NCBI GenBank assembly: GCA_017849585.1
Contig: JAFIGT010000032.1
Coordinates: 84,027-148,026 of the forward strand
Length of the DNA stretch: 64,000 bases
Direction of reading: 5' to 3'
Source: Verrucomicrobium sp.
GTDB taxonomy: Bacteria > Verrucomicrobiota > Verrucomicrobiia > Methylacidiphilales > UBA1321
Shown: in pieces, positions 3,057 through 50,170 of the stretch
Layout of the letters: each line of letters starts with the position of its first letter
Position numbering within the stretch: position 1 is the stretch's first letter
Position numbers and translations under genes: made by a program
Notes under the pieces: generated by a model
Told to the model about the DNA's origin: nothing
What the model saw: only the letters and a program-made list of their open reading frames with translations
The model's database searches: none

Positions 3057-3061
3057 AAGGC

Positions 3062-3715: not shown

Positions 3716-3775
3716 AATGGTTTCCGGGATGAATGAACACTACTCTCGCTATTTATGCGGCGCAAATGAGGAGAA

Positions 3776-7915: not shown

Positions 7916-7951
7916 TGCGGAGCGGGAGAGGTCATTTGTTGGAACTGATTT

Positions 7952-7980
7952 TTGACACCTTCGGGTAGTGACGTTATAAT
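7952..7980 (+). promoter_or_regulatory. consensus sigma70-type promoter TTGACA-N17-TATAAT
   Basis: TTGACA at 7952-7957 and TATAAT at 7975-7980, with an exact 17-nt spacer. It lies 17 nt upstream of the ATG at 7997 of the LacI gene. Confidence 0.55.
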
Positions 7981-7996
7981 GGACCAGCGCAACGCA

Positions 7997-16308: not shown

Positions 16309-16533
16309 CGTAATGTAGCTTATCTAATGGACTAAGGCGACAACGTCAAACTGGATGTGAAAGGGAAGTCGAACCGGGAACACTCAAAAGCCGTGTATGG
16401 AATAACGGATTGGCGCGGAAACCGGTATATTCCTGTGCAATTCAACATGGATCATTGCTGTTCCATTCCGATTCATAATGGACTGGGCAACAGAGGCTCA
16501 TGCGAAATAAAGGTGGAAAAGCTTCTCACACAA

Positions 16534-20886: not shown

Positions 20887-20970
20887 TCAAGAAAGTCGAT
20901 TTGAGACAAATCAAAAACCGTGAATGGCATAACCTCATTGTTTTGTAATTGGTACCCTGAAGAAGTGCGG

Positions 20971-22584: not shown

Positions 22585-22592
22585 AGCGTCGA

Positions 22593-23321
22593 ATGCACTC
22601 ATTCCTCCAGAAATCAGTCGCGGGCAGGCAACGGGATCCTCTCTTCCTGTCGCGGGGCTTTACGTTGGTCGAGATGTTTGTCGTGCTGTCGATTGTGGCG
22701 GTGATGGCGAGCTTGCTGCTGATGGGGTTCGGTCGGGCCATGCAACTCTCCAAGAGTGCGAAAAGCACTGCCAATTTGCGCGCCATTGCGACCTCCATCA
22801 ATCTCTACGTCGGAGACAATCAAGGGCGCTATCCCTATCTTTGCGATAACACTACTGGCGGTGATTATGCCGGTACGAGTTATCAGGGGAATTATTGGTC
22901 CGATCTGATTCGACCCTACCTGCCGCCGAATCAATCCTACGTCAATTACTCGGGCCAGAAGTTCAATCAGTGTCCCACACTGATTGATCCCTTCTTGAAA
23001 AACGGACAACACCATACTATTTGCGATTATGGTGGCAGTACGGAAGTCTTCCGCTTTCCCTGGTTGAATGCGGCTATGCGCGCCGCCACGGTGTCACGTC
23101 CCAGTCAGGTTGTGATGGTGGTGACTGCGGGAACAAATTTGCGCGCAACGTGGTATCTGGATGTTTCGAGTTACGTCAATAGCTACGCCAACAAAACCAA
23201 CGATGTGAATGATCGTGGCACGGGGGAAATTCTCTGCGTCTTTATCGACGGTCATACGGAGGCAATTCCTACGGCGGAGTTTGTGGAGAACCGCCGGACA
23301 CTTTTGTTGATGAATCCCTGA
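22593..23321 (+). CDS. prepilin-type N-terminal cleavage/methylation domain protein (DUF1559/H-X9-DG-related, H not conserved)
   Basis: SRGFTLVEMFVVLSIVAVMASLLLMGF prepilin motif and a C-terminal ...ILCVFIDGHTEAIP. It sits 8 nt after GH5 and 8 nt before the SGNH gene. Confidence 0.8.
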   Translation: MHSFLQKSVAGRQRDPLFLSRGFTLVEMFVVLSIVAVMASLLLMGFGRAMQLSKSAKSTANLRAIATSINLYVGDNQGRYPYLCDNTTGGDYAGTSYQGNYWSDLIRPYLPPNQSYVNYSGQKFNQCPTLIDPFLKNGQHHTICDYGGSTEVFRFPWLNAAMRAATVSRPSQVVMVVTAGTNLRATWYLDVSSYVNSYANKTNDVNDRGTGEILCVFIDGHTEAIPTAEFVENRRTLLLMNP

Positions 23322-23329
23322 AAAAGAGA

Positions 23330-24079
23330 ATGCCTACCATGCTCCGTCCTGTCCGTAGCCTGCCTCTGGCCCTTGCCCTTTCGATCGGATGGGGGAGCAC
23401 CCTTCACGCGGAGACGGTCAACTGGCCGCTCGAGACACCACCGGCCGGAGTTAATCCAGCGGCTTATCCTGTGCCACGGAATGATTGGATGGTGCGATTC
23501 ACGGATAATCTCAAGCAGGCTCAGGGCGGAAATATCGATCTCCTGTTTCAGGGCGACTCCATTACGCACGGATGGAAAAGTTTGGGAGCGGCCGTCTGGA
23601 AGGAGCGCTATGAAAATCGCAACGTGGCTTCGTTTGGTATCAGTAGCGATCGCACACAAAACGTCTTGTGGCGGATGCAGCATGGCGAATTGGACGGAAT
23701 CTCTCCGAAGCTATTGGTGCTCATGATCGGCACGAATAATCTAGGTGACTCCGCGCCGCAGATTGCCGAAGGCATTACTGCGATCGTTCGTGAAGTTCAG
23801 AAGCGCTGTCCCCGGACGCATATCTTGCTGTTGGGAATTTTTCCGCGAGGTGCCAGTCCCACCGATGGACAGCGCGTGAAAATCGCGGAAATCAACAAAC
23901 TCATCGAACCGCTCGGTCGCGAACCAAGTGTGACCTATCTCGATATTGGAGAAAAGTTTTTGGCTCCGGATGGCACGTTGTCCAAGGAGATCATGCCCGA
24001 TTTGCTTCACCCTTCGCTGGCTGGTTATCGTATCTGGGCCGATGCGATCCAGCCCGTTGTGGACCAGTATTGTCGATAG
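23330..24079 (+). CDS. SGNH/GDSL hydrolase (esterase)
   Basis: Signal peptide. Block I FQGDSITHGW, block III MIGTNN, block V DLLHPSLAGYRIWA. Confidence 0.85.
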   Translation: MPTMLRPVRSLPLALALSIGWGSTLHAETVNWPLETPPAGVNPAAYPVPRNDWMVRFTDNLKQAQGGNIDLLFQGDSITHGWKSLGAAVWKERYENRNVASFGISSDRTQNVLWRMQHGELDGISPKLLVLMIGTNNLGDSAPQIAEGITAIVREVQKRCPRTHILLLGIFPRGASPTDGQRVKIAEINKLIEPLGREPSVTYLDIGEKFLAPDGTLSKEIMPDLLHPSLAGYRIWADAIQPVVDQYCR

Positions 24080-34527: not shown

Positions 34528-34673
34528 GGGGCAGATTGTAGGCGTTAGGCTGCTTTCGTCCCGCGAATGGGTTCGTTTTGAAGCCGGATGCTCAAATTCC
34601 CATAGTGCTTGCGCAATTCGACTAAGCGTTGCGCGTTTGGTTCGCAGGTGGTTCGGGTTATTTTAAAAGGATC

Positions 34674-36338
34674 ATGCCTGCCAGTCATCTTTACTATTAC
34701 CGTCACCGCGCGCCCTTGCCTCAGCCTCCGACTATTACTGCGGATGTTTGCATATATGGGGGTACCTCCTTGGGTGTCATTGCTGCCGTGGAATTGAAGA
34801 GTCTGGGTTATCGAGTCGTGGTGGTCGAATTTGGGCGGCATCTTGGCGGCCTGAGTTCCGGCGGTTTGGGTGCCACGGATATTGGTAACAAGCAGGCTAT
34901 CGGTGGTCGGTCCCGGCAGTTTTATCGTGATTTGGGTGAATACTATGGGCGTCCGGAGAGTTGGGTGTTTGAGCCTCATGTAGCGGAAGCGCTGTTCAAT
35001 CGTTACATGGCGGAAGCCGATGTGCCCACTTACTTCGAAGAGGCGCTGGCTTCGGTGACCAAGGAGGGGAATCGGATCACGCAAATCGTCATGGAGAACG
35101 GGACGATATTTCGCGCGAAATACTTTGTGGATGCCACTTACGAAGGGGATTTGATGGCGCGCGCGGGCGTGTCCTTCCATGTCGGTCGGGAAAGTAATGA
35201 GGTCTACAAGGAAACCTATAACGGCGTTCATTTTGGTCATCCCAATCACAACTTCAATTGCCATGTCGATCCTTACAAAATGGAGGGCGTGCCCGCCAGC
35301 GGGTTGCTGCACGGTCTGTCGGGGGAAGATCCTGGCCGGCAGGGGGAGGGTGATCATCGGGTCCAGGCTTATAATTTTCGCGTCTGTCTGACGGATCAGG
35401 ATGAGAATCGTTTGCTGTTCCCTTGCCCGGAGCACTATGACCCGGAGCGGTATACCTTGCTTGCGCGTTATTTGAAAAAGGGATACTGGGACGCGCTCAA
35501 TCTTACGATACGCATGCCCAATGGAAAGACCGACACGAATAACTACGGCGGCTTTTCGTCGGATCACATCGGAGGCAATTATCAATGGCCGGACGGCGAC
35601 TACCTCACGCGCGAGGCGATCTTTCAGGATCATGTGTCGTACAATCTCGGGATGTATTATTTCCTGGCGAATGATCCTTCGGTGCCACGATCGATCCGCG
35701 ATGAGGTGAATTGCTGGGGATTACCCAAGGATGAGTTCGTGGAGACGCAAGGCTGGAGTCATCAACTGTACATCCGTGAAGGCCGCCGCATGCTATCCGA
35801 TTACGTCATGACGGAGCATAACGTGGTGGGACGGGAGTATGTCTCCGACTCGATCGGTCTGGCGGCTTATGGCATGGATTCCCATTCCTGCCAGCGGGTT
35901 GTCTTGGGAGGACGCGCCTATAATGAGGGTAACGTCGAGATTCATGGTTTCCGCCCGTACCCGATTGCCTACCGTTCCATTTGTCCTCGCGAACACGAGT
36001 GTGCCAATCTTTTGGTGCCGTGGTGCCTTTCCTCCTCGCATATCGCCTTTGGGTCGATCCGCATGGAGCCGGTGGGGATGGTGCTTGGCCAGTCGGCGGC
36101 CCAGGCGACGGCTCTTGCGTTGAAGGAGGCGTGCCCAGTACAAAAAATTTCCGTTCCGACGTTGCAAAAAAATTTGCGCCATGCCGGACAAATTCTCGAT
36201 CCAGTCCAGGTGGCGTTGCCGAAAATGCAGGTCATTGAGACGGATAGCATCCGTTCTTACAATAAAAGGCCGTCCTTGAAATCTCGCGGGGCTCGCCCGG
36301 TTTTATCTTTGAGCCAGGCGGAAAAACTGGAGACGTGA
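34674..36338 (+). CDS. FAD-dependent oxidoreductase (PF12831-like, CAZyme-cluster associated)
   Basis: Dinucleotide-binding motif DVCIYGGTSLGVIAAVELKSLGYRVVVVEFGRHLGGLSSGGLG. No signal peptide. Confidence 0.8.
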   Translation: MPASHLYYYRHRAPLPQPPTITADVCIYGGTSLGVIAAVELKSLGYRVVVVEFGRHLGGLSSGGLGATDIGNKQAIGGRSRQFYRDLGEYYGRPESWVFEPHVAEALFNRYMAEADVPTYFEEALASVTKEGNRITQIVMENGTIFRAKYFVDATYEGDLMARAGVSFHVGRESNEVYKETYNGVHFGHPNHNFNCHVDPYKMEGVPASGLLHGLSGEDPGRQGEGDHRVQAYNFRVCLTDQDENRLLFPCPEHYDPERYTLLARYLKKGYWDALNLTIRMPNGKTDTNNYGGFSSDHIGGNYQWPDGDYLTREAIFQDHVSYNLGMYYFLANDPSVPRSIRDEVNCWGLPKDEFVETQGWSHQLYIREGRRMLSDYVMTEHNVVGREYVSDSIGLAAYGMDSHSCQRVVLGGRAYNEGNVEIHGFRPYPIAYRSICPREHECANLLVPWCLSSSHIAFGSIRMEPVGMVLGQSAAQATALALKEACPVQKISVPTLQKNLRHAGQILDPVQVALPKMQVIETDSIRSYNKRPSLKSRGARPVLSLSQAEKLET

Positions 36339-38784: not shown

Positions 38785-40413
38785 TCATTTCTGGAGCGGG
38801 GTGGGATTTGTCGCGTCTAGGGTCGTGAATGGCGCAGTGGGCAGATTTTCTATATTATAGAGATTGGCTCGCGGGAATGCGCGCCACCCATAGCGTATAG
38901 CCGTTGGCTTGGCGACGGCGTCGCTCCAGACCAGTACGGAATGGTTCTCACTGATTTGAGCGGTGGCGGGAACAAAATGTCCGTCGCCAGCCGCGATTTC
39001 AAATCCCTCGACATGATCGAGCGGTGCTTCTGGTGGGACATTGAGGCGAGGGGAGGGGGCGCTGCCGATTTTCAAACCGCTGCCAACATGATCGAACAGG
39101 ACACGGATTTTGTTTTTCTCCACCTGCAGAGAGCGATAGCAGGGGCCCGTATAAACGAGTTTTTCGCCATAGACCAGGTGCCGTGCGACGAGAGCTGCGC
39201 GATATCCGACATCCTGTTTGTTCCTGGGGTGGACATCCTTTTCTTCGCCAAGATCGATTGTTACAGCCATGCCGGTATTGGGCAGCGAAAGATTTTTCCG
39301 TTGCGAGTCGCGCAGATAGACCCAGCTCTCGTGAGGACCGAAACCGGGCAATTGCACGATAATGAACGGGAAGTCGCCCTGATTCCACTTGAGCCGCCAA
39401 TCTTGAATCAGGGTGGAGAGGAGTGTGGCGTAGAGTCGCGCCGTCGATTCTTTGCCTGCATTCTGTTCGCCCTGATACCAGACGACGCCTTTCATGGCGG
39501 AGGAAAAGAGTGGCGCGAGCATGCCATTGTAGAGGACCGTGGGCAGATGCTGGTCCTCATCCGGCGCGAGTGGTTTTTTGGGAGCCGGAGGCGGTGGAGG
39601 GACTGTAGTTGAAGGGGAGCTTGTTTCGCCCGACTTTACCTCTTCAGCTCCATATTGCGCTTTCCATGAGTCGTACTTTTTTTGCCAGTCGGGAAGAATT
39701 TTTTGCGTGTACTCGGCCTTGAGCTGGGGAAGACGATCTCGGGTCTGTTTGAAACGGTCGGCGTAGGCAGTGAGCGCCGGATTGGATTCCAATGCCTCCA
39801 GACTGGTCCACGTTTCGCCAGGCGAACCGCCCCAGGCGGCGTTGACGAGGCCGACCGGAATTTTTTCTGCTTCGTGAATCTCGCGGCCGAAAAAATAAGC
39901 CACGGCGGAAAAACCGCGCACGGTGGCCGGTGTGCAGACGAGCCATTCGCCATCGCAGTCTTTCTGTGGGGTGAAGGCAATTTTCTTTTTGACGTCGAAC
40001 AATCGTATCTGCGGATAGTTCGCCTTGGGAATGGCTTCTACCGCGTTGTGTGCGCGGTTCATGCGGAAATCCATATTTGATTGTCCGGAACAAATCCAGA
40101 CATCACCGACGAGCAGGTCGCGAACAATCAGCGTGTTTTTTCCGCGCACGGTCATTTCCTGCGGAGTGGAATCCGCTTTCAATGGTTTTAGTTGCACAGA
40201 CCATTGGCCGGACGCATCAGCGGTTGTGCTCACTTCCTGGTCGGACAGGGTGAGGGTGACTTCTTCGCCGGGATCAGCCTGCCCCCAGATTGGTAATCGC
40301 TGGCCTTGCTGCAAGACGGCGTGATCACCGAGAATGGCGGGTAGTTTTACGTCGGCTCGGATGGAAGCAAGCCCAAGGAGCATCCAGAGGACAACGGCAA
40401 GACGAGAAATCAT
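38785..40413 (-). CDS. sialate O-acetylesterase-like carbohydrate esterase (SASA family)
   Basis: Signal peptide. Hallmark motif VWICSGQSNMDF. 542 aa. Confidence 0.85.
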   Translation of the reverse strand: MISRLAVVLWMLLGLASIRADVKLPAILGDHAVLQQGQRLPIWGQADPGEEVTLTLSDQEVSTTADASGQWSVQLKPLKADSTPQEMTVRGKNTLIVRDLLVGDVWICSGQSNMDFRMNRAHNAVEAIPKANYPQIRLFDVKKKIAFTPQKDCDGEWLVCTPATVRGFSAVAYFFGREIHEAEKIPVGLVNAAWGGSPGETWTSLEALESNPALTAYADRFKQTRDRLPQLKAEYTQKILPDWQKKYDSWKAQYGAEEVKSGETSSPSTTVPPPPPAPKKPLAPDEDQHLPTVLYNGMLAPLFSSAMKGVVWYQGEQNAGKESTARLYATLLSTLIQDWRLKWNQGDFPFIIVQLPGFGPHESWVYLRDSQRKNLSLPNTGMAVTIDLGEEKDVHPRNKQDVGYRAALVARHLVYGEKLVYTGPCYRSLQVEKNKIRVLFDHVGSGLKIGSAPSPRLNVPPEAPLDHVEGFEIAAGDGHFVPATAQISENHSVLVWSDAVAKPTAIRYGWRAFPRANLYNIENLPTAPFTTLDATNPTPLQK

Positions 40414-40438
40414 AAAGGCAGCGGGGAGGCGTTGGAGT

Positions 40439-41830
40439 TCAACTAGGCTTGGATTGCTCCGGCACTAGTCGAAGGGCATTCCACGGGACGTCTTGGGGAA
40501 GCACTCCTTGGCGAGCGGCGAAGGCGGCGCAACGGCCTGCGGCTTCGCCCATGGCGACGGCATTTCCGGTGACGCGGTAGCTGGAGTGGGCCAGGAAGTC
40601 GCCGCTGATGCAGCGTCCGGCCATGAGCAGTCCGTTCACATCTTTCGCGATGAGCGAGCGCAGCGGGATGTCATACGCCTGGGTCTTGATCCGGTTTTCC
40701 CGTTCGTAATCGCGGGATTTTTTGGGATCGATGGAATGGACGTCGATTCCAAAAGTGGTGGTGCATACCGCGTCCTGATGGCGGCGACCCGCGATCATAT
40801 CTTCGCTGGTGACGGTGTAGAGTCCATGGATGCGTCGACCTTCCCGAATACCAATCTGTGAGCCGGTGGCGACCAGGCGCAGGCCTTTCCAAGGTTCGCC
40901 GAGTCCGGCCAAAGCCCGAACGAGCTTGCGCACCTCCTGCCGGGCGTGAAGGGTGGCGCGTGTGACGTCATCGGCGTTGGTGGCCAGAGCATTGTACTCG
41001 TGATTGGCCATGAGGGCGTACAGGTCTTCGCGGATGTGAAAAAGCGTTGGCGCGGCATAGGAAGGGGTGACGCCGGCGCGTTGGAATTCCGCAAGCAAGC
41101 GCGCCTTGGCTTCTTTGTTGCCACCGGCTCCGATGAACGGTCGTATCGTTTCGGGCAACACGCCGTAAACGAGCGCGACCAAACTCATGGGTTGCACGGC
41201 ACCGGTTTCCGGATGGCCCATGTCAAACCTGCAGCCAGCTAGGGCAGCGAGATCGCCATCGCCCGTTGCATCGACGAACGTGGCGGCACGCCACGCCTCG
41301 CGTCCGGATTTGGACTCGGTGACAATCGTCTCCAGCTTGCGGGCGTTATTGGCGTAGGCGGCGCACACTTCCGTGTGCAGCCGGATGTCCACTTTGGCGC
41401 TAAGGCAAAGTTCCTCCAGAATCGCCTTCATCGATTCCGGATCGTAAGCGAAGCTGCCGCCCTGCTGGCGCAATGCGCCCTCTTTTTGCAGGATCATTCG
41501 CAGTTCGGACATGATTCCGGTTTTGTTGGCGGAATCAATCACCCAACTCAGGCAACCGCTGGTCCACACTCCACCGAGACAACCGGCCCGCTCAATGAGT
41601 TTTACTTTCGCACCGGCTCGCGCGGCAGCCAGCGCGGCGGCGAAACCTGCGGGGCCTCCGCCCGCCACGATCACATCATAGGTACCGCAGACCGGAATGT
41701 GGCGTGCTGGTTCCGGCAGTTGTGACGGTGCGATGTCTCCTGCTGCCAGCAGGGTAGTGGGCAAAGTGCCTGTCACGGCGGCACTGATTCCCATTTTGAG
41801 CGCTTCGCGTCGAGTATAGGGGGTTGGCAT
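40439..41830 (-). CDS. Tat-exported FAD-dependent oxidoreductase (PF12831-like)
   Basis: Twin-arginine-like leader MPTPYTRREALKMGISAAVTG, then YDVIVAGGGPAGFAAALAAARAGAKVKLIERAGCLGG. The start at 41830 removes the overlap with the upstream gene. Confidence 0.8.
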   Translation of the reverse strand: MPTPYTRREALKMGISAAVTGTLPTTLLAAGDIAPSQLPEPARHIPVCGTYDVIVAGGGPAGFAAALAAARAGAKVKLIERAGCLGGVWTSGCLSWVIDSANKTGIMSELRMILQKEGALRQQGGSFAYDPESMKAILEELCLSAKVDIRLHTEVCAAYANNARKLETIVTESKSGREAWRAATFVDATGDGDLAALAGCRFDMGHPETGAVQPMSLVALVYGVLPETIRPFIGAGGNKEAKARLLAEFQRAGVTPSYAAPTLFHIREDLYALMANHEYNALATNADDVTRATLHARQEVRKLVRALAGLGEPWKGLRLVATGSQIGIREGRRIHGLYTVTSEDMIAGRRHQDAVCTTTFGIDVHSIDPKKSRDYERENRIKTQAYDIPLRSLIAKDVNGLLMAGRCISGDFLAHSSYRVTGNAVAMGEAAGRCAAFAARQGVLPQDVPWNALRLVPEQSKPS

Positions 41831-41886
41831 GGGTGAAATCGGTTGGTTTTTTGTGGGCCAATCGGAGCTATCTGGAGTGGGGCGAA

Positions 41887-43065
41887 TCAGGGTAAGACGC
41901 AGGCCGAGGGGATTGCGCCGTGCCACTCTTCGGCCAGAAGTGTACGATGGTCATAGCATCGGTTCAATGCTTCCTGCAAACCCGGAACAAAACACCGGGG
42001 AGCATCGCCTGAATCGTCCACTTCAATACAGGCGGAGGGGAAATCATGAATCGGAAAGCCAGCGTCATGCATTTGATTCACGCATCGAGTGTGTGCGCTG
42101 GCGGCGTCGATTCCACAGAGAGGCGAAGCACCTGTGCGCGCAGAATTCACCGCCTGCCATAGTTTCCGGCAGGGCTCGTCCTCGGGGGAGCCGTAGGAAA
42201 TTTTTTCGCCCGAGCGGAGTGTGGCGACAATGCTCTTTCGTTCGGCCGAATAGTCGATTACTGCCTGTTCAAACTCGTAGCGGAAACGGGGGTCTTGCCT
42301 GTCCGCGGTCACATGGGACGCGAGAAACTGCAATTCCACGCCCGATTGTGTCCGCAAGCGCAGCGCCGCGGTTTCGAAGCTTTCAATCGGATTGACTCGC
42401 CACAGCTCCGCCTCGGAGACAGTGGCGGCGGCACTCTGCCCGATGGACGGTCCCAGAAGGTAAAGCATGTTGTGGAGATAATGAGCCATGGCGTTGTTCA
42501 CGGGGCTGTCGAGAAGTCGTTCGCCCGTTTTGGTTCGCAAGCGCCCCGCCCAGTCATTGCGGCGATAATAGCGGTCGCCGCGCGGCCAGCAGATCAATGT
42601 CTGGAATTGACGCGGGCAACCGAAGCGTCCGGCCAGGACATCGCTTTTGAGTTTTTGAATGGCCGGGCTAAAGGACCATTGATAGCCGATCGTCACTTGC
42701 TTTCCCGAAAGCGTCTCCGCGGCTTTCATCTGCTCGATCTGTTCAAGACTGGTGCAGAGTGGTTTTTCGCACAGGACATGAGAACCGTGGGCGAGGGCCA
42801 GACAGGTCTGTGCGCAATGGAAATGAATGGGGGAAGAAATGATGAGCAGGTCGCACGCAGCCGTCGCATAGAATTCCTCCAGTCGCGAAAAGGTGGGAAT
42901 GCCACGCGATACAATCTCCGGCCATTGGGGGCAATGTTTCGGAAAGGGTTCGATGATGGCGACGAGTCGGCAGTTCCGCGCTTCGGCCTCCGCAAGCAGG
43001 GTCGTGAGATAGCGTTCGCCATAACCACCCGCGCCGCACAGGGCGATGGACAGGGGCGGCATCAT
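41887..43065 (-). CDS. Gfo/Idh/MocA family oxidoreductase
   Basis: N-terminal Rossmann motif IALCGAGGYGERY and the EKPLC motif. Confidence 0.85.
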   Translation of the reverse strand: MMPPLSIALCGAGGYGERYLTTLLAEAEARNCRLVAIIEPFPKHCPQWPEIVSRGIPTFSRLEEFYATAACDLLIISSPIHFHCAQTCLALAHGSHVLCEKPLCTSLEQIEQMKAAETLSGKQVTIGYQWSFSPAIQKLKSDVLAGRFGCPRQFQTLICWPRGDRYYRRNDWAGRLRTKTGERLLDSPVNNAMAHYLHNMLYLLGPSIGQSAAATVSEAELWRVNPIESFETAALRLRTQSGVELQFLASHVTADRQDPRFRYEFEQAVIDYSAERKSIVATLRSGEKISYGSPEDEPCRKLWQAVNSARTGASPLCGIDAASAHTRCVNQMHDAGFPIHDFPSACIEVDDSGDAPRCFVPGLQEALNRCYDHRTLLAEEWHGAIPSACVLP

Positions 43066-43143
43066 CGGCCCGCGCCCTCCTGCCGCGCAATGGATATCAG
43101 AGGAGTCGGGTACATAATCGTCTTTCAGCGGATCGAGTACGGT

Positions 43144-44031
43144 TTACTGCGAGGAACGGGATTTCCAGCTCCGGCGGAAGCAGAGGCTCAGCGCGAAGGC
43201 CGCGGCCAGCATGAGAAGATTTGTGGAGGGTTCGGGTACGATGGTTCCGGGTGCCAGCGAGAGCACGCTGACGCCATTTACGGTGTCTCCCAGTGAATTC
43301 CAGACGCCGAAATTATCATACCAAGTGGTCAGGGATAAATTGTTGCCGAGAGTGCTCAGCGATTCGCCGATACCAAATCCGGTGATAAATCCGGTCGCAG
43401 AGCCTCCCGTTCCCAATTGTGCAATGCTGGTGGTGGTGCCATCGGACCAATAGGTGGCCACGGTATCGGTGGCCAGGCTGGTGCTGGCGGCATCGCCCAG
43501 CGTGATGTTCGATCCGGTTCGGTTGATAACGATGGTGAAATGATATGTCTTGGACAGGGCGATGCTGGAGGAGTTGATGGTGTTGCCATAGCGTCCCGTG
43601 GAAGTGCGGGCTTCATTCGGCGCGGTGTCCATGACCCCCGTATTCCAGAGATCAAAACCCACCACGAGCGCTCCGGCTCCAGCGGCAAGGGAGGCGATGT
43701 TGCTTTGAAAAACACGGATACTGGCGCTGGCCGCCGCACCGGTGGTATTTGTGCCGGAAGTATAGAGGGCATTCCCGTGCAGGTTGGTATAGGTTGGCGA
43801 GGCGGCGCGCACGTCTATGGCCACAGAGGTTAAATTGTTGGAAGAGGTGGACGTGAAGGTATCGGTGGCTCCTGTGCTGTTCACTAACAAAGCGGCGGAA
43901 CCGCTGCTGGTATCATAGGACTCGAAGTCCGCGTTCCAGATCAGCGCGGCGCGCAGGAAGGTGGTTCCCATGAGAAGAAGGAGAGTGGATGTCGTCAGAA
44001 TCCAGCGAGTCCGGGAGTGATCGGTTTTCAT
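43144..44031 (-). CDS. secreted protein, family Y paralog 1, PEP-CTERM-anchored
   Basis: Signal peptide from MKTDHSRTRWILTTSTLLLLMGTTFLRAA. The C-terminus VPEPSTNLLMLAAAFALSLCFRR. Shares LIWNADFE, NRTG, TGFGIG, WYDNFGVW and VNGVSVLSLAPGT blocks with ORF 47928. Confidence 0.8.
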   Translation of the reverse strand: MKTDHSRTRWILTTSTLLLLMGTTFLRAALIWNADFESYDTSSGSAALLVNSTGATDTFTSTSSNNLTSVAIDVRAASPTYTNLHGNALYTSGTNTTGAAASASIRVFQSNIASLAAGAGALVVGFDLWNTGVMDTAPNEARTSTGRYGNTINSSSIALSKTYHFTIVINRTGSNITLGDAASTSLATDTVATYWSDGTTTSIAQLGTGGSATGFITGFGIGESLSTLGNNLSLTTWYDNFGVWNSLGDTVNGVSVLSLAPGTIVPEPSTNLLMLAAAFALSLCFRRSWKSRSSQ

Positions 44032-44076
44032 GAGTTCACATTGCTCTATTCGAAATAGAGAGGCAATTGTGAGGCT

Positions 44077-44092
44077 TTTTAACTCGTTAAAA
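44077..44092. promoter_or_regulatory. perfect 7-2-7 palindrome TTTTAAC-TC-GTTAAAA (candidate LacI operator)
   Basis: Read directly, about 46 nt upstream of the 44031 start and immediately downstream of the LacI gene. Confidence 0.5.
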
Positions 44093-44136
44093 TTGGAGGC
44101 CGCCACGCGGCTTGCATGGAATGGGCGAGGGCCGTG

Positions 44137-45177
44137 TTACTTCCGGACCCGGGGGATCTGCCGGATGGTGGTGCCGGGGTTGAAATCGCTGCCGATCATG
44201 GTGATTCGCGATTCTTCCTCCTCGCAGCGGATGTTACCCTCGACAAGGCTGGCCAGGATTTCGACGGCCGCTCCTCCCAGGCGATGGGTATTCTGGTGCA
44301 TGCCGCTCAGGGGGTCATTGCGCTGACAGTCGAGATGGAGGAAGCCGAGTTGATCCGGAATGCGGCGGCCCAGAGCTTGCGTCCATTTCCAGACATCGAG
44401 CGTGACACCGATAATCACCTCCGGCCGGGTCCGGCGATACCACTTTTCGTAAGCGGCCTGACTCCATGCCGCCGGGGTGAAAATCACGATTTCGGCGCGG
44501 GGAAAACGCCGCTGTGCGGTCGTTACGCCCGCCATCCAGAGATGATTGACCCGTTCAATGTCGGTATCGCGGATGACGATGCCGATTCGTTCGTAGCCGT
44601 GCTCGAGGGCGCGTTGAATAGCCTGCTCCATCGTCTGGACATGGTGATTGCATACGCGCGGCACGGTGGGAGCGTCCAGCGTGTAACCGAGGGCAACGAT
44701 GCTGAAGCCACTGATATCGATTTCGAGCGAGCGCTTTTCGATAGGTAGTGGGGGGACAATGATGCCGGCAATACCCCGGGCTTTCAGGACGGCGGTGAAA
44801 CGGGCGGGGTCCTTGGCATAATCGCCCATCCAGAAATGTTCGATATTATAGCCCAGTTCCTGTCCGCGTGCGGTGGCGCCCCGTATGTACTCCGGGTAAG
44901 AATGCCAGGTCTTCCAAATGTCTCGCGTCTTGTATTGGGTGACAAAGGCAAGGGTGGCGCGATAGGTCGGGCCGCGGCCCTGCCGCACGCTGGTCATGAG
45001 GGCGCGCACCATGGGATTGGGGGTATAGCCGAGTTCTTTGGCCAGTCCCTGGATTTTGATCCGGGTAAGCTGGGCGACCTTGGAGGAGTTGCGCAGCGCC
45101 ATGGAGACCAGGGCTCGGGTGACACCGGCGTGGTCGGCGATGGTTTGCAGGGTGACGCGCTGGTGGGGATCGCTCAT
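44137..45177 (-). CDS. LacI family transcriptional regulator
   Basis: HTH region TLQTIADHAGVTRALVSMALRNSSKVAQLTRIKIQGLAKELGYTPNP. Paralogous to the 7997 gene (shared GY.PNP.V.ALMT.VR). Confidence 0.9.
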   Translation of the reverse strand: MSDPHQRVTLQTIADHAGVTRALVSMALRNSSKVAQLTRIKIQGLAKELGYTPNPMVRALMTSVRQGRGPTYRATLAFVTQYKTRDIWKTWHSYPEYIRGATARGQELGYNIEHFWMGDYAKDPARFTAVLKARGIAGIIVPPLPIEKRSLEIDISGFSIVALGYTLDAPTVPRVCNHHVQTMEQAIQRALEHGYERIGIVIRDTDIERVNHLWMAGVTTAQRRFPRAEIVIFTPAAWSQAAYEKWYRRTRPEVIIGVTLDVWKWTQALGRRIPDQLGFLHLDCQRNDPLSGMHQNTHRLGGAAVEILASLVEGNIRCEEEESRITMIGSDFNPGTTIRQIPRVRK

Positions 45178-45269
45178 GGGCGTTTAAATGTCATTTACAA
45201 GCTTTCAAGGGAAGTGAGCTTGCCGATAAGGTTATCATACACTACGCGGAAGTCGGGACGAAAGGAGAA

Positions 45270-45283
45270 TTTAACGAGTTAAA
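45270..45283. promoter_or_regulatory. perfect 6-2-6 palindrome TTTAAC-GA-GTTAAA (candidate LacI operator)
   Basis: Read directly in the divergent region between the LacI gene (start 45177) and the pseudopilin-like gene (45335). Confidence 0.5.
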
Positions 45284-45334
45284 GCAGCGCCCGATTGCCT
45301 GACTTTGGGGATGCCATTACCTTCATCAAGACAC

Positions 45335-45997
45335 ATGAATTCACCAGCCCTCAACATCCGGCGTGGCGGCTTTACCCTTATGGAATTAATGGTTGTCGTG
45401 GCCATTATAGCGGTGTTGGTGGCGCTTCTCATGCCGGGCATGGCGAAGATGTCGAGGAACGCGCAGGGCAGTCATATAGCGTCGCAGATGCGCCAGCTCG
45501 GCCAGGCGGTCTTCAGCTATGCCGGGGAACATGACGGGCAACTGCCGGGGCCACTTTGGGATGGACAGGGTTTCCGCTACAAAGCCACCCACCCTGAAGC
45601 GCTGATGACACATCTCGGTTCGTATCTGGGGGTGCAAAATGTGGATGCCAATTGGAGAATTGCCGATCAGCTGATGACTCCGCCGCAGCGCGCATTCTGG
45701 CATAAGATCAATAACGATTCCGCTGCATTCCTGAAAATCACCGTATCGGGAAGCGTCATCCCATTCGGTTACTCGTCCGGAGCTACGGTCACGACCTCGA
45801 TGCGCCTTCAGTCGCTGGTCACCCCCAGCGAAACGTACATGTTCCGCGAGGCCGATCAAAAGGCATCCTGGGTTTCGATCAGTAGTGGTTATTATCGGCA
45901 ATGCCCGCCCGCGCCACTTCACGGCGACTATCGGTACATATCCTATTTTGACGGGAGTATCCGTCCGGTTGCAGTCAAAGAAAGCGACCGGCAGTAA
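45335..45997 (+). CDS. prepilin-type N-terminal cleavage/methylation domain protein with H-X9-DG C-terminus
   Basis: RGGFTLMELMVVVAIIAVLVALLMPG prepilin motif. The C-terminal LHGDYRYISYFDGSIRP is an exact H-X9-DG. Confidence 0.8.
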   Translation: MNSPALNIRRGGFTLMELMVVVAIIAVLVALLMPGMAKMSRNAQGSHIASQMRQLGQAVFSYAGEHDGQLPGPLWDGQGFRYKATHPEALMTHLGSYLGVQNVDANWRIADQLMTPPQRAFWHKINNDSAAFLKITVSGSVIPFGYSSGATVTTSMRLQSLVTPSETYMFREADQKASWVSISSGYYRQCPPAPLHGDYRYISYFDGSIRPVAVKESDRQ

Positions 45998-46008
45998 TTT
46001 TAATTTTC

Positions 46009-47910
46009 ATGAATACTCCCGTTATCGTGCGACTGGTCCGCTTCATCGCGATTTCATTTCTATCCGCCGCCGCAACCGCGCAGGCCACTCTCTGGCATGT
46101 GGACCTGAAAGGGCCGAACGGTGACGGGAAAAGTGCGGAAACGGCGCTGACGTCCATCCAGCGGGCGGTCGATCTGGCAGAGCCGGGAGATACGGTGCTC
46201 ATTCGTCCGGGGATTTATTATGAGAATGTGATTCTGAAGCGGGGCGGCACGGCGAAGGCACCGTTGCGCCTGATGGCGGACGCAGTGGAGCGGGATCGGG
46301 TGATTCTCAGTGGCGCGGCGCGTGCAATCCGTGAGGGAAAGGTGGCTTGGGAGTTGGTCGACAAAGACTCGGGACTTTATCGCATTCCCTTTCTCTACCG
46401 ACCCACGCGCGTCTTGGCCTCAGGGGTGGATTTGCAGCCGTATCCGTCGTTGGCGGACCTTAAGGCATTCCGCTTTCTGGCGGACAATTATCCGGGCAAT
46501 TCCCACGGTTTCGCCTGGGATCCGGAATCGAAAAATCTCTACGTCCGTCTACGCGCGGATGGCCGGTATGGGGCGACCAATCCCAATGCCGCCGTCATGG
46601 CTGTATCGGGACCGCCAGCGGGGGGGAAGTGGGGTAATGAGATTACGGCTGATGAGAATTGGAATCTGGCGCTTCGATTTGCCGAGGAGGCCCATGTCAT
46701 CATCGATGGGCTGACCTTTGAGACGCCCGGTTATGCCGGTATTTACACGGAGGCAGGAGAACTGACGGTTCGCAATTGCTACTTCATCGGTTGCCGTTAC
46801 GGCGTGGCGGGGAAGGAGCCGGGCCGCGGTGGGAAGGGGCTTATCGACCGCGTTACGGTGGAGAATTGTTACTATACGCAATACCCGGCATTTACCGACG
46901 TGGAGGACATCGTCGCGAAATATAAGGCAGAACAATACACCAAGTCCGAGTGGTGGCAGAAAATCATGCATTGGCAGCGCAAGGGTGGGCTTCCGCCCAA
47001 AAGCGGAGGAGTGGGCCGCGCCTTTAATTATGAAACAGGGCTGACCCGCGGCATGGGAGCGGGCTGGATCGTGCGCTACAATTATCTGTATGACGTGTTT
47101 GAGGGATTCAGCGCGGGCTCGACGTCATCGAGCCAGGGCGCGGAAATCTATGGCAACCGACTGGAGCGGATTTGCGACAATGCGGTGGAAACGGAAAATC
47201 ATTCGCGGGATCTGCGCTTCCACAACAATTTGATCATCGATGCGTTCGAACCCATTTCCTGGCAACCCATCGATGGACCGCCGATGCCCGGTCCCGCATA
47301 CATCTACGATAATATCGTGCTCCAAACACCGGCCGTGTCTGCGATGTGGGAGGTGGCGGGTAATAGCGGTGGTATTTTCAAAATGGGAATTCAGAACAGA
47401 AGTGGAGTTGGTGAAGTGGCGGAAAGCCAGGTGCCGGGTGGCTTCTGGGTGACGCACAACACGATCCTCGTCACCCGCGGCAGAGTCTTCACGCTCTTGA
47501 CTGCGCCTACCTCTTCGTATGGTCAATTCTACTTTGCCAACAATGTCTTCCTGACGCGCGGCATTGCCGGGGCAAACAGCATGAACGACAAGGGGAGGGG
47601 AATCTATTTCGACGGCAATCTGCTGGCTCCCTCCGCGATGCCGACCCTGCCCCAGGAATCGTATTTGCAGCGCGCCGCTCTCGTAGCGGGGCCTCATGGC
47701 AAAGTGTTCGACGATCCATCGGTGGTGACGGTCGCAGCGGATGGTCACGTAACGATGAAGGAGATGGAGGCGTTGAACGTCGGGATTACTACGCGAACGG
47801 TCTCCTGGAACGGACTGAATATCGAATTTCCCGCCCTCATGCCGCTGCGGACGGTCGTGGGGGCAGTCCCTTTCGATAACAGCCGAGTGGGGCCGCAGCC
47901 CAGAAAATAA
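46009..47910 (+). CDS. secreted right-handed parallel beta-helix protein (pectate-lyase-fold; possible polysaccharide lyase/hydrolase)
   Basis: Signal peptide. N-terminal cap pattern SIQRAVDLAEPGDTVLIRPGIYYENV, and repeated N/G-rich beta-helix turns. Confidence 0.7.
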   Translation: MNTPVIVRLVRFIAISFLSAAATAQATLWHVDLKGPNGDGKSAETALTSIQRAVDLAEPGDTVLIRPGIYYENVILKRGGTAKAPLRLMADAVERDRVILSGAARAIREGKVAWELVDKDSGLYRIPFLYRPTRVLASGVDLQPYPSLADLKAFRFLADNYPGNSHGFAWDPESKNLYVRLRADGRYGATNPNAAVMAVSGPPAGGKWGNEITADENWNLALRFAEEAHVIIDGLTFETPGYAGIYTEAGELTVRNCYFIGCRYGVAGKEPGRGGKGLIDRVTVENCYYTQYPAFTDVEDIVAKYKAEQYTKSEWWQKIMHWQRKGGLPPKSGGVGRAFNYETGLTRGMGAGWIVRYNYLYDVFEGFSAGSTSSSQGAEIYGNRLERICDNAVETENHSRDLRFHNNLIIDAFEPISWQPIDGPPMPGPAYIYDNIVLQTPAVSAMWEVAGNSGGIFKMGIQNRSGVGEVAESQVPGGFWVTHNTILVTRGRVFTLLTAPTSSYGQFYFANNVFLTRGIAGANSMNDKGRGIYFDGNLLAPSAMPTLPQESYLQRAALVAGPHGKVFDDPSVVTVAADGHVTMKEMEALNVGITTRTVSWNGLNIEFPALMPLRTVVGAVPFDNSRVGPQPRK

Positions 47911-47927
47911 GAACAAAAAGGAAACGC

Positions 47928-48725
47928 ATGAGTCGCCTAAATTCTCAGTGGTGCCGGATCGCGTATGGGAGTTGGCTGCTGGCGCTTGCCAGTCCTTCAC
48001 AGGCGGAACTGGTTTGGAAAGCCGACTTCGAAGATCCGGCGAAACATTCCGCGACTACACTCGTCGAGGCAGGTGGTCAGAATAATACGTTCACCACGAT
48101 CAAGCCCGGTGGATTCATGACGGTGAGCGAATACAAGGTGGTTGTGGGAGGAACCGCTCCGAAATTTATGAAGGGCGGCGTCCTATATGTGGAGGCGGTC
48201 AACAGCGGGGGCGAAACGGGGCTGGGTGCGGTGCGGTTGACGCAAGCTTCGCTGGCTCGCTTTATGCCGGGGAGTGTTGTCGTTTTGAGCTATGATTTGT
48301 ACTACACCGCAGAGCAGGCGTTCAGTATCGGTGTCGAAGTGAGGACGAGTCGGGAGCAGCGGCTTGGGAATACTCTTTATATTCCCAACCTGCCCAAAGG
48401 TGTTCCCTTACGCATGACGGTGGTGGTGAATCGCGGGGGTGACCCGGTGACCCTTCCGGGAGATTTGGGCGTGCTCGAAGCGAACCGCATGGCCACTTAT
48501 TATTACGATGGTAGCCAGTTCAGCCGGGCTGAAACTTCTGACGTCATTTCCTTTAAGGAGGGGATGACGGGATTCACCATCGGCCTCAGTTTGAGCAAGC
48601 TCAAGCCCGGCGGCATGCTGGCGGTCTGGTACGATCATTTCGGCATCTGGACGCAGGCATCCGATCTGGTAGATGGCGTCAGTGTATTAAAATTATCTCC
48701 CGGCACAGGGATTCCCCAAGTATGA
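47928..48725 (+). CDS. secreted protein, family Y paralog 2 (no PEP-CTERM anchor)
   Basis: Signal peptide plus the family Y blocks (LVWKADFE, NRGG, TGFTIG, WYDHFGIW, VDGVSVLKLSPGT). It ends GIPQV*, where paralog 1 has VPEPST. Confidence 0.7.
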   Translation: MSRLNSQWCRIAYGSWLLALASPSQAELVWKADFEDPAKHSATTLVEAGGQNNTFTTIKPGGFMTVSEYKVVVGGTAPKFMKGGVLYVEAVNSGGETGLGAVRLTQASLARFMPGSVVVLSYDLYYTAEQAFSIGVEVRTSREQRLGNTLYIPNLPKGVPLRMTVVVNRGGDPVTLPGDLGVLEANRMATYYYDGSQFSRAETSDVISFKEGMTGFTIGLSLSKLKPGGMLAVWYDHFGIWTQASDLVDGVSVLKLSPGTGIPQV

Positions 48726-50170
48726 GCACCACTCTTGCAAATAAACCGACCGAGCCGTCCACCAAATCGTGGACGGCCGGGACGCTGACCTATTCCATGG
48801 GAGGGATTGTCGCCCTGTTTTTCTGGTTATTGGTTGGCGATTTCGCGTGGTCGATGCGCGAGAAGTCGGTCGGCCCAATGGCTCAGTGGTACCTGCATCA
48901 TTTGATGGTGCCGAATTTTATTTTGGGATTGCTGATCAGTTCACTGCCAGCGGTCATCCAGATTTTTGTTGGTCCTTTCATCAGCGTCAAATCGGATCGC
49001 ACACGGAGCAAATGGGGCCGGCGTATTCCCTTTCTATTTATCACGACGCCAATGGCGGCGCTCGGCATGGTGGGCTTGGGCCTGACGCCGCTCGTGGCGA
49101 AATGGCTTCACCAGACTTTCATGGCTTCCTCGGCAGCGGGCGCGGGAATCGGATCTTTTTTCGCAAATGAGATGATTATCTCGGTGATTTGTTTCGGTAT
49201 TTTCTGGACGTTGTTTGAAGTGGCGGTCATCGCCGGAAAACCGGTTTTCGACGGGCTGATCAACGATGTCGTTCCGCAGGCTCTGCTGGGGCGCTTTTAC
49301 GGACTGTTCCGCGCGGTGATGCTGATCGATGGCATGGTGTTCAATTTTTGGGTCATGGGATATGTGCCCACGCATTTTACGCTGATCATGGTGTCGGTGG
49401 GGGTGTTCTACGGTGTGGCCTTTTTCTGGGTCTGTCTGAAGGTGAAAGAGGGCGAGTACCCGGCGCTTCCTCCGGTTCCCGAGAAAGCCGGTGTTGCCGG
49501 TAACCTGCTCGGTGCGGCGGCAACCTACTGTCGGGAATGTTTCTCTCATCCCTATTATCTGTCTGTTTTCGTCATGATGATGGCGGCAGCGGTTTGTTTT
49601 GGACCAATCAATACCTTTGCGATTCCGTTTGCCGGGCATGTTGGTGTTGATATGAAAACCTACGGACAGGCGGTGGCCTGCACCTATCTAGTTTCCCTGA
49701 GTCTGGCTTACTTTTTGGGCTGGATGGCCGATCGGTTTCATCCCTTGCGCCTGTGCATCGGGGTGTTGATTGGGTACGTTGCGGTGACGGCTTGGGGCAG
49801 TTTTTACGCGCGGAGCGCGACGACTTTTCTCATCGCGTGGATCATGCACGGGCTTTTATCGGGTTGTTATTTCACGTGTGCGGCATCACTCGGACAGAGG
49901 TTGTTTCCGCGCGAGAAATTTGCGCAGTATGCCTCGGCGGCGGCCCTGTTTAGCGCCGGAGCGAACATTTTTCTCGCGCCAACAATGGGCTCGATCATCG
50001 ATCTGTCCGGCAATACCTATCGCTACACTTTTGCGGGGTCCTGCCTCCTGGCCATCATCGCCCTCGTGGCGGCTTGTCTCGTCTATGGCCGATTCCGGAA
50101 GCTGGGTGGCCCGGCTCATTACGTCGCCCCGGATTACAGGGAGGGGCGTAAATCCGCGCCGACGAGCTAA
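48722..50170 (+). CDS. MFS transporter
   Basis: About 12 predicted TM helices and a loop 2-3 motif SDRTRSKWGRRIPF. Its start overlaps the upstream stop (ATGA). Confidence 0.85.
   Translation: MSTTLANKPTEPSTKSWTAGTLTYSMGGIVALFFWLLVGDFAWSMREKSVGPMAQWYLHHLMVPNFILGLLISSLPAVIQIFVGPFISVKSDRTRSKWGRRIPFLFITTPMAALGMVGLGLTPLVAKWLHQTFMASSAAGAGIGSFFANEMIISVICFGIFWTLFEVAVIAGKPVFDGLINDVVPQALLGRFYGLFRAVMLIDGMVFNFWVMGYVPTHFTLIMVSVGVFYGVAFFWVCLKVKEGEYPALPPVPEKAGVAGNLLGAAATYCRECFSHPYYLSVFVMMMAAAVCFGPINTFAIPFAGHVGVDMKTYGQAVACTYLVSLSLAYFLGWMADRFHPLRLCIGVLIGYVAVTAWGSFYARSATTFLIAWIMHGLLSGCYFTCAASLGQRLFPREKFAQYASAAALFSAGANIFLAPTMGSIIDLSGNTYRYTFAGSCLLAIIALVAACLVYGRFRKLGGPAHYVAPDYREGRKSAPTS

Follow-up and report, generated by a model that had tools for sequence, protein, structure and literature searches.

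A Probable Polysaccharide-Utilization Locus without SusC/D

Verrucomicrobiota and their relatives in the Planctomycetes–Verrucomicrobia–Chlamydiae (PVC) group play a major part in degrading complex polysaccharides in lakes, oceans, soils and guts. They nevertheless lack SusC/D, the system that accounts for glycan uptake in Bacteroidota. How, then, does such a bacterium handle a polysaccharide? We addressed this question in a locus of nine genes at positions 38785–50170 of a 64,000-nucleotide stretch of Verrucomicrobium sp. DNA (contig JAFIGT010000032.1, positions 84,027 to 148,026). The whole stretch is called the window, and coordinates refer to it unless another locus is named. It belongs to a metagenome contig of 194 kb (ENA ERZ1749689) from a freshwater bacterium. 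A map of the open reading frames (ORFs) and a domain search of the window split the locus into two operons around a gene for a LacI/GalR-family regulator. Our analysis indicates that the locus is probably a LacI-repressed polysaccharide-utilization regulon of the class Opitutia that works without SusC/D. Glycan catabolism under LacI control is well supported. With a defined operator and regulator, the locus offers a compact case of polysaccharide handling without Sus machinery.

The left operon is on the minus strand. Its first gene past the operator encodes Y1 (43144–44031), a protein with a signal peptide, a beta-sandwich domain that we call Y, and a PEP-CTERM-like anchor; it matches no family. 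It is followed by a cytoplasmic Gfo/Idh/MocA NAD(P) sugar oxidoreductase without a signal peptide (41887–43065; PF01408 65.2 bits, PF22725 27.8 bits), an FAD-dependent oxidoreductase exported by the twin-arginine (Tat) pathway (40439–41830; PF12831 E=5e-100) and, as the last gene, a secreted SASA-type carbohydrate O-acetylesterase (38785–40413; PF03629 83.7 bits, cut-off 24.8). The LacI gene (44137–45177) is also on the minus strand. The right operon, on the plus strand, begins with a prepilin-type protein that has a class III signal and a C-terminal H-X9-DG motif (45335–45997; PF07963, TIGR02532). Next come a secreted right-handed beta-helix protein, a predicted carbohydrate-active enzyme of an unclassified family (46009–47910; PF13229 26.9 bits), Y2 (47928–48725), which has a signal peptide and the Y domain without an anchor and matches no family, and a major facilitator superfamily (MFS) transporter, the presumed importer of breakdown products (48722–50170; PF07690 53.1 bits, PF13347 27.3 bits). 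In the right operon, 11 nt and 17 nt separate the first three genes, and the stop codon of Y2 shares the sequence ATGA at 48722–48725 with the start codon of the MFS gene. Sec signal peptides were read by eye in the SASA-type esterase, Y1, Y2 and the beta-helix protein. A first-pass annotation of this DNA had listed nine genes with these domains, the two gaps, the overlap and two palindromes, and all of them were read in the sequence.

Pfam and NCBIfam domain searches of the nine proteins found no SusC, SusD, TonB-dependent receptor or ABC binding-protein domain in 38785–50170, which bears out what the first-pass annotation had said of the locus. An adjacent SusC/SusD pair was not found in the gene calls of related loci either. 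Because this defining pair was looked for and not found, the locus is not a Sus-type polysaccharide-utilization locus (PUL).

The closest named relative is the freshwater metagenome-assembled genome (MAG) Verrucomicrobia bacterium Tous-C9LFEB, whose Y2 is 88% identical. All nine genes recur there in unchanged order, and the flanks differ on both sides. Since Tous-C9LFEB keeps the nine genes between other flanking genes, they can be regarded as one unit. The different flanks suggest that the whole nine-gene module was relocated; when the flanks of the window and of the Tous-C9LFEB lineage (L003/L004) were compared, no mobile-element genes were seen around the module. In L003 and L004, a metallo-beta-lactamase-fold gene lies beyond the SASA gene and an AMP-binding gene cluster lies beyond the MFS gene.

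Putative Operators on Both Sides of the LacI Gene

The regulator contains both a helix-turn-helix domain (PF00356, 42.6 bits, cut-off 27) and an effector domain (PF13377, 30.4 bits, cut-off 26.5). Its gene had been described as bracketed by two near-identical palindromes, one before each operon, and both were located as described. The left one, TTTTAAC-TC-GTTAAAA (TTTTAACTCGTTAAAA), is at 44077–44092, 46 nt upstream of the Y1 start codon. The right one, TTTAAC-GA-GTTAAA (TTTAACGAGTTAAA), is at 45270–45283, 51 nt upstream of the prepilin start codon and 92 nt upstream of that of LacI. The operator has the form of a 7+2+7 inverted repeat. One site is the reverse complement of the other down to the central dinucleotide, so that both read TTTAAC-GA-GTTAAA toward the downstream operon, and ATTGCCT occurs about 10 nt past each of them. 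The LacI gene is co-directional with the left operon; thus, the left palindrome separates the LacI stop codon from the start of Y1. The right one is in the divergent LacI/prepilin intergenic region. This position, 92 nt from the LacI start codon, makes autoregulation plausible.

We searched the 64 kb for the 14-mer pattern TTTAACNNGTTAAA (TTTAAC-NN-GTTAAA) with one mismatch allowed, and only these two matches were found. By chance, 0.03 matches would be expected in 64 kb, and two or more sites were present in 0 of 100 shuffles. Two other roles for the palindromes were considered and rejected. As terminators they would be misplaced, being AT-rich and upstream of genes; as the ends of a mobile element they have arms of only 7 nt, and they lie inside the module rather than at its borders.

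Conservation of the Regulon

Further loci were found by scanning one genome per species with a Y alignment and by looking up relatives of the beta-helix enzyme. The scan used a 7-sequence subset of the Y family and gave 3 loci among 185,579 species genomes. In Geminisphaera colitermitum TAV2 (L007, Opitutales), SASA, MFS_2, beta-helix and pilin genes are on the minus strand and LacI, Y and SASA genes are on the plus strand; perfect sites at 8593 and 9752 bracket the LacI gene as in the window. A Ruficoccus MAG (L008, Puniceicoccales) carries an MFS_2 gene on the minus strand and, on the plus strand, genes for Y, SASA, LacI, Gfo/Idh/MocA, beta-helix, Y, pilin and a PF14099 lyase, with perfect sites at 9917 (before Y) and 15706 (before the beta-helix gene). 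The identities of their proteins to those of the window were 53% and 52% for LacI, 47% and 45% for the beta-helix enzyme, and 37% and 43% for the pilin (L007 and L008, respectively).

Two more regulons come from Cerasicoccus arenae (L009) and Puniceicoccus vermicola (L010). Cerasicoccus has a LacI 57% identical to that of the window, Gfo/Idh/MocA and beta-helix genes, and sites at 7641 and 7789, both between the Gfo/Idh/MocA and beta-helix genes. Puniceicoccus has a LacI with 51% identity, the same two enzyme genes, and sites at 6695, 7842 and 10137, all intergenic. Both have a SASA gene nearby. Neither has a pilin gene, so that the pilin is not essential to the pathway everywhere. In both, the slot of Y after the beta-helix gene is taken by a PEP-CTERM protein of about 298 aa with a Laminin_G_3 domain (L009 9878–10774; L010 10266–11159), which has no detectable homology to Y outside the anchor. 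This looks like a displacement by another concanavalin A (ConA)-like fold.

The LacI orthologs of these four loci are 51–57% identical to that of the window, and the motif flanks each of them. Together with the window there are 11 operator sites in five genera, perfect or with one mismatch, each beside a LacI ortholog or a regulon gene. The equivalent position of the left operator is also occupied in Geminisphaera, and the right operator is kept in Geminisphaera, Cerasicoccus and Puniceicoccus. The centre dinucleotide is G[A/G/T] toward the downstream gene at 11 of the 11 sites, which means that the operator is functionally asymmetric. A further locus, L011, has a GntR-type regulator with prepilin and beta-helix genes, and no operator site was found in it. 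We read TTTAAC-NN-GTTAAA as the LacI operator of a conserved regulon because it stands beside LacI orthologs in four further genera and is absent with the GntR-type regulator. That the palindromes are LacI operators had been proposed from the window, and their retention beside the LacI orthologs of Geminisphaera, Ruficoccus, Cerasicoccus and Puniceicoccus strengthens the proposal. We conclude that this LacI lineage has the motif as its operator, that is, its putative binding site, and that the regulon extends over two orders of the class Opitutia.

LacI, beta-helix, Y or Laminin_G, SASA, Gfo/Idh/MocA and MFS genes occur in reshuffled order across Opitutales and Puniceicoccales. The first-pass annotation had expected conserved synteny of the module. 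This expectation was right in that the genes form one conserved unit, of which rearranged sets are retained in other genera; however, pilin, beta-helix, Y and MFS genes follow each other in that order only in the closest relative.

A separate observation was made in L015. At 13441–13454, an operator-like sequence, TTTAACCCGTTAAA, stands between a gene of glycoside hydrolase (GH) family 39 and two stand-alone Y genes, and the fetched stretch of this metagenome contig shows no LacI gene.

A Prepilin-Like Partner of the Enzyme

The first protein of the right operon has RRG|GFTLMEL at its N-terminus (RRG|GFTLMELMVVVAIIAVLVALL) and then a hydrophobic helix. PF07963 (29 bits, cut-off 21.2) and TIGR02532 (27 bits, cut-off 16.3) confirm a class III signal. 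The pseudopilin equivalogs were not reached (GspG 34.6 against a cut-off of 88.85 bits, GspH 32 against 80), and only the N-terminal 50–75 residues match them. The protein had been labeled an H-X9-DG prepilin. The motif itself, HGDYRYISYFDG, is indeed present at the C-terminus, but the curated models TIGR04294 and PF07596 gave no match even at E<=10. The orthologs in Geminisphaera and Ruficoccus (37–43% identity) keep PLHG...YFDG, and more distant relatives that are similar at the N-terminus carry PF07596.

We then counted how often such a gene accompanies the beta-helix family. Beta-helix genes clustered at 90% identity gave 33 clusters, 32 of them with at least 900 nt of upstream sequence, and a pilin-like gene was counted if its product had a prepilin N-terminus and a C-terminal H-x8-10-DG. 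A pilin-like gene is directly upstream of the beta-helix gene on the same strand in 14 of the 32 cases and directly downstream in 3 more (17/32 adjacent). Among the 26 pilin-like genes in 659 kb, 22 fall in beta-helix-adjacent slots, and these slots cover about 13% of the strand space. The pairing of a prepilin-like gene with the beta-helix family is non-random, as these counts support statistically, and the recurrence of this gene pair, which had been suspected from the window, thus holds in de-duplicated loci. All 16 aligned beta-helix-adjacent pilin-like proteins share the architecture FTLIELL...Q...H-x9-(V/F)DGH. In L015, the gene order is prepilin, FAD oxidoreductase, beta-helix, esterase, GH39, the operator-like site and two Y genes; a Y-Y-beta-helix fusion with another FAD oxidoreductase adjoins it. 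The first-pass annotation had stated that no mechanism is assigned to these genes, and our literature search, itself incomplete, found none for this gene pairing.

What does the pilin do? Since the pilin and the beta-helix enzyme are a broadly conserved pair, export or display of the enzyme is as well indicated as capture of a substrate. We tentatively favor an enzyme-linked role, namely export or display through a pseudopilus-type apparatus, because the conserved neighbor is the enzyme and because two orthologous regulons do without the pilin. Ranked next is a capture or uptake role, which we hold to be possible but doubtful. The pilin and the Y proteins would then be a substrate-capture device, a retractable or static pilus-like fibre that pulls the polymer through the outer membrane in place of SusC/D. 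Several facts agree with such a fibre. The locus has no TonB-dependent receptor, SusD or ABC binding protein; pilin genes inside operons of carbohydrate-active enzymes recur in the window and in metagenomes; and the pilin is expected to be co-induced with the enzymes because its gene is the first behind an operator. Moreover, mucin-glycan uptake by Akkermansia depends on loci with pilus-like proteins (PMC13174399, PMC12418764). However, the conserved partner of the pilin is the enzyme and not a transporter or a lectin-like protein, and Cerasicoccus and Puniceicoccus run the same regulon without any pilin. The Pfam and NCBIfam searches detected no carbohydrate-binding domain in the 220-aa protein, and no pilus machinery is found nearby. 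We therefore keep the enzyme-linked role in what follows.

Y Proteins, a New Sequence Family

Y1 and Y2 are paralogs (35% identity, E=1e-38). Neither had a sequence match in Pfam or NCBIfam, and a Y profile had none in the PDB. The C-terminus of Y1, VPEPSTNLLMLAAAFALSLCFRRSWKSR, contains a VPEPST-hydrophobic-RR motif. Y1 had been called a PEP-CTERM protein; the VPEPST...RR tail is there, but TIGR02595 scores 13.9 bits, under its cut-off of 16, and PF07589 was not reported. Y2 ends with ...PGTGIPQV exactly where Y1 runs on with ...PGTIVPEPST into the anchor. Thus Y2 is an anchor-less Y paralog, as had been noted, and it looks like a formerly anchored protein after loss of the tail.

A word-index search with Y2 gave only Y2 itself and one 88% relative, and it took an exhaustive profile search to recover the family, which has 59 representatives among 1.84 billion clusters. 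Stand-alone proteins of at most 340 aa account for 50 of the 59; 31 of these 50 have a PEP-CTERM tail (34.5 bits in family member P0026), and the other 19 stop just before it. In the remaining 9 of the 59, Y forms N-terminal modules of proteins of 793–1445 aa. One of them, P0004, is a Y-Y-beta-helix protein; over 619 residues, its beta-helix part and the window enzyme are 51% identical. Because this part is orthologous to the window enzyme, P0004 is a gene fusion of products that neighboring genes encode in the window. Other fusions join Y to GH123_N/GHL6 (P0016, P0050) or to DUF6259 (P0045).

The first-pass annotation had called the Y proteins lectin-like and proposed a structure prediction with a fold search, which we carried out. 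The AlphaFold2 model of Y2, built from a 45-sequence alignment, is an all-beta sandwich with a pLDDT of 90.6. Foldseek against the PDB placed it, with a probability of about 1, near carbohydrate-binding modules (CBMs; CBM27, CBM22, CBM16 and another CBM), legume lectins, calreticulin and MAM domains, with lyases of polysaccharide lyase (PL) family 7 lower. The predicted fold is thus a beta-sandwich with CBM and lectin neighbors at TM-scores of 0.3–0.4, and it suggests that the Y proteins bind carbohydrate. Four polar residues are invariant in the family (D123, N168, Y191 and D236). Y is a new sequence family with a predicted lectin/CBM-type fold, tied physically and genetically to the beta-helix enzyme. 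Membership in Laminin_G was considered as well and was dropped: in a profile–profile comparison with the Laminin_G_3 proteins of Cerasicoccus and Puniceicoccus, only the PEP-CTERM tail matched.

A catalytic role is an unlikely alternative for Y. The Y proteins would then be jelly-roll enzymes similar to PL7 or GH16 rather than binding modules, which would agree with the four invariant polar residues and with fold matches that include PL7 alginate lyases and GH131 at E ~5e-4. However, the top fold matches are CBMs, lectins and MAM domains, and tandem N-terminal modules on large enzymes are typical of CBMs. Furthermore, the protein that takes the Y slot in Cerasicoccus and Puniceicoccus is a PEP-CTERM Laminin_G_3 protein, another non-catalytic ConA-like fold.

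Predicted Catabolic Enzymes and Transport

The beta-helix protein scored 26.9 bits with PF13229, and Pel9A-like_beta_helix was a weak match. Its AlphaFold2 model has a pLDDT of 92.5. The Foldseek neighbors are GH120 XylC 3vst (E=5e-13, TM 0.49), GH136 lacto-N-biosidases, GH141 BT_1002, the Klebsiella K1 capsule lyase, PL6 lyases and PL9 Pel9A. All top fold neighbors are carbohydrate-active, with TM-scores of at most 0.49. By sequence, a phmmer search of the PDB gave a best E of 0.051, in the N-terminal cap only. We found 75 relatives in Opitutia, Phycisphaerae and Planctomycetes, all of them without a name or labeled DUF1565, and a metagenome scan with the beta-helix alignment added 38 loci at 31–47% identity, several of them from the human gut. 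The protein is a predicted glycan-cleaving enzyme of an unclassified family. This family ranges from freshwater to the human gut, and Y is tied to the enzyme by gene fusion. On seven human-gut contigs (L030, L032, L033, L035, L042, L044 and L046) the relatives are 34–45% identical, and several have a prepilin-like gene just upstream.

The esterase is closely related to sialate O-acetylesterases and other carbohydrate esterases of the PDB (9ega, 9h4u and 7kmm, E=6e-103 to 8e-95), and SASA genes are present in L007, L008, L009 and L010. The ORF of the FAD oxidoreductase opens with a GTG at 41926. Translation from the called start, Met33, yields MPTPYTRREALK, a twin-arginine motif (TRREALK), in agreement with the 463-aa gene call. 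Matches of this flavoprotein to solved structures are confined to the FAD-binding N-terminus. PF12831 genes are also found beside the beta-helix family in L015, L041, L043 and L052, and the FAD oxidoreductase is a variable member across the regulons. A second PF12831 FAD oxidoreductase of the window (34629–36338, a 569-aa ORF) is 25–29% identical to the locus copy; it adjoins AraC regulators and a PF10022 (BcGHD) gene, upstream of a GH78 rhamnosidase.

For the Gfo/Idh/MocA protein, no PDB relative does better than E=1e-11, and inositol, scyllo-inositol and glycoside-3-dehydrogenases are among the best. Orthologs with 38–42% identity are found in the LacI loci of Ruficoccus, Cerasicoccus and Puniceicoccus. 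A PDB sequence search with the MFS transporter gave nothing; MFS_2 transporters occur in Geminisphaera and Ruficoccus, and L021 has an ortholog with 44% identity.

These genes could also be thought to tailor the exopolysaccharide matrix of the cell itself, through PEP-CTERM proteins, an epimerase- or lyase-like beta-helix protein and an acetylesterase. PEP-CTERM/exosortase systems are associated with exopolysaccharide production, and the fold neighbors of the beta-helix include the mannuronan C5-epimerases AlgE4 and AlgE6. However, the stronger fold matches are exo- and endo-glycosidases and lyases. Genes for a glycosyltransferase, flippase or polymerase are missing from the locus, which has a LacI regulator, an importer-type MFS protein and a cytoplasmic sugar dehydrogenase, and the neighboring genes are catabolic glycoside hydrolases. 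Own-matrix tailoring is consequently improbable, and utilization of an external glycan is retained below.

A Model of the Pathway

In the model that we propose, LacI would bind TTTAAC-NN-GTTAAA some 50 nt ahead of the gene that opens each unit, with one site in its own divergent promoter region, and the regulon would stay off until an imported breakdown product releases the repressor. Comparative genomics points to the LacI binding site, and the behavior of the family points to repression and an inducer. That the palindromes are a shared promoter element or the site of another factor is very hard to believe, even though the oriented G[A/G/T] centre of all 11 sites could be a promoter feature and the operator-like site of L015 has no visible LacI gene, because a 7+2+7 inverted repeat has the size of a LacI operator, accompanies LacI regulons in five genera, is absent with the GntR-type regulator, and occurs just twice in a 64-kb window that holds many other operons.

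With LacI as the regulator, induction would lead to export of the beta-helix glycanase, which would cleave the external polymer. The two Y proteins, one tethered by its PEP-CTERM-like anchor and one free, would be exported as well and hold the polymer at the enzyme. The SASA-type esterase would strip O-acetyl groups, and the Tat-exported flavoenzyme would act outside the cytoplasm, in the periplasm. The MFS carrier would import oligo- or monosaccharides, and the cytoplasmic Gfo/Idh/MocA dehydrogenase would start the oxidation of the imported sugars. The prepilin-like protein would be a co-evolving partner of the beta-helix enzyme. After cleavage by a prepilin peptidase, it may be built into a pseudopilus of the type II secretion or type IV pilus kind, which would export the enzyme or hold it at the envelope. 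As to the substrate, our guess is an acetylated, probably uronate-containing heteropolysaccharide, because acetylesterases occur in every locus, L008 encodes a PF14099 lyase, and L015 has genes for GH39 and heparinase-II/III-like proteins.

Some observations weigh against this model or limit what it can claim. The regulons of Cerasicoccus and Puniceicoccus are orthologous and have no pilin gene. The few full-length relatives of the pilin (32–34% identity) stand in unrelated contexts, by leuS and an OprB porin or by a GSDH-type dehydrogenase. The locus 38785–50170 lacks genes for secretion or pilus assembly, for a prepilin peptidase and for an exosortase. Judged by its fold neighbors, the beta-helix enzyme may be either a hydrolase or a lyase. 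The Y proteins are lectin-like at the fold level only, as their TM-scores are low. A scan for sigma-70 promoters and terminators gave counts at chance level, so that overlap of promoter and operator is not shown. Both operators are unchanged in the close relatives L003 and L005, but this invariance weighs little because those intergenic regions are 96–98% identical overall. Finally, the substrate and the role of the pilin are parts of the model that we infer.

PVC bacteria carry very large families of prepilin-like proteins whose function is unassigned. We put forward, as a speculation that is more likely wrong than right, that enzyme- or substrate-specific prepilins of the H-X9-DG/DUF1559 type plug into a shared pilus or pseudopilus machine, one for each polysaccharide operon. 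If so, a machine that exports or displays the enzyme, or reels in the glycan, would be the PVC counterpart of SusC/D, and the present locus, with its PEP-CTERM-anchored Y lectin family, would be a minimal example that LacI can switch. The role of the pilin, the substrate and the regulon are testable because orthologous loci occur in named species, namely Geminisphaera colitermitum TAV2, Cerasicoccus arenae and Puniceicoccus vermicola.

Relation to Known Glycan Systems

The Sus-like PULs of Bacteroidota with surface glycan-binding proteins of the SusE/F type are similar to the locus in being co-regulated clusters of secreted glycan-cleaving enzymes, an esterase, non-catalytic beta-sandwich proteins at the surface and an importer. 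However, the locus has no SusC/SusD, and a LacI regulator takes the place of a hybrid two-component system or an extracytoplasmic function (ECF) sigma/anti-sigma pair. Import would be by an MFS protein, the putative tether is PEP-CTERM-like instead of a lipid anchor, and a prepilin-like gene is part of the operon.

LacI operons with MFS/GPH transporters are known in Proteobacteria and Firmicutes. They too have a LacI/GalR repressor that probably regulates itself, a palindrome of about 14–16 bp in front of divergent catabolic operons, and a dehydrogenase step in the cytoplasm. The regulation of the locus is ordinary LacI logic. The locus differs from these operons in its half-site TTTAAC, its non-symmetric centre and its uncharacterized partners, that is, Y, the beta-helix family and the pilin-like protein.

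In the same phylum, the MUL1/MUL2 loci of Akkermansia muciniphila serve mucin-glycan acquisition without canonical SusC/D, through pilus-like proteins and periplasmic complexes, and MUL2 encodes the archaeal-type pilin Amuc_1102 and a PilM-like protein outside any enzyme operon (PMC13174399, PMC12418764). This is the nearest precedent for pilus-dependent glycan uptake. The locus, in contrast to MUL2, encodes a pilin whose class III signal is bacterial and whose tail is H-X9-DG, and the pilin gene adjoins that of a specific enzyme.

The pilin shares an N-terminal cleavage/methylation domain and a C-terminal H-X9-DG-like motif with type II secretion pseudopilins (GspG-K) and with the H-X9-DG/DUF1559 prepilins of PVC bacteria. 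It differs from them in that it scores far under the GspG cut-off, TIGR04294 and PF07596 are silent, and its gene neighborhood lacks an assembly ATPase, a platform and a secretin. The beta-helix enzyme resembles GH120 (XylC), GH136, GH141 (BT_1002), PL6 and PL9 in its right-handed parallel beta-helix, N-terminal cap motif and C-terminal beta-sandwich, but it has no significant sequence relation to them, and its catalytic residues and mechanism are not assignable. Y has the fold class of beta-sandwich CBMs and ConA-like lectins and likewise occurs as tandem N-terminal modules of enzymes. Unlike those, it matches no Pfam, NCBIfam or PDB entry by sequence and is mostly stand-alone with a PEP-CTERM tail. 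What is new here is the Y family, the unclassified beta-helix family, and the pairing of this enzyme with an H-X9-DG-type prepilin-like protein across PVC lineages.

Other Genes of the Window

The rest of the window is rich in glycan-degradation genes, including GH78, GH5, GH29, CBM9, GDSL esterases and AraC regulators. A second LacI-centred cluster at 1808–10473 has the same pattern with different families. It comprises three consecutive prepilin-like ORFs on the minus strand (1808–2698, 2622–3098 and 3062–3739), a PEP-CTERM protein (3928–4770; PF07589 28.8 bits), a 1002-aa protein with three F5/8-type-C (galactose-binding-like) domains (4907–7915), a LacI paralog 33% identical to the locus LacI (7952–9127), and a GH29 alpha-L-fucosidase (9124–10473). 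At 16357–24079 there are, in this order, genes for a 1509-aa CBM9 protein, a GH5 cellulase-family protein, a prepilin-like protein and a GDSL esterase. The prepilin-like gene of this group (22566–23321) scores 18.4 bits with N_methyl, below the cut-off, and its product has the tail ...FIDGH.

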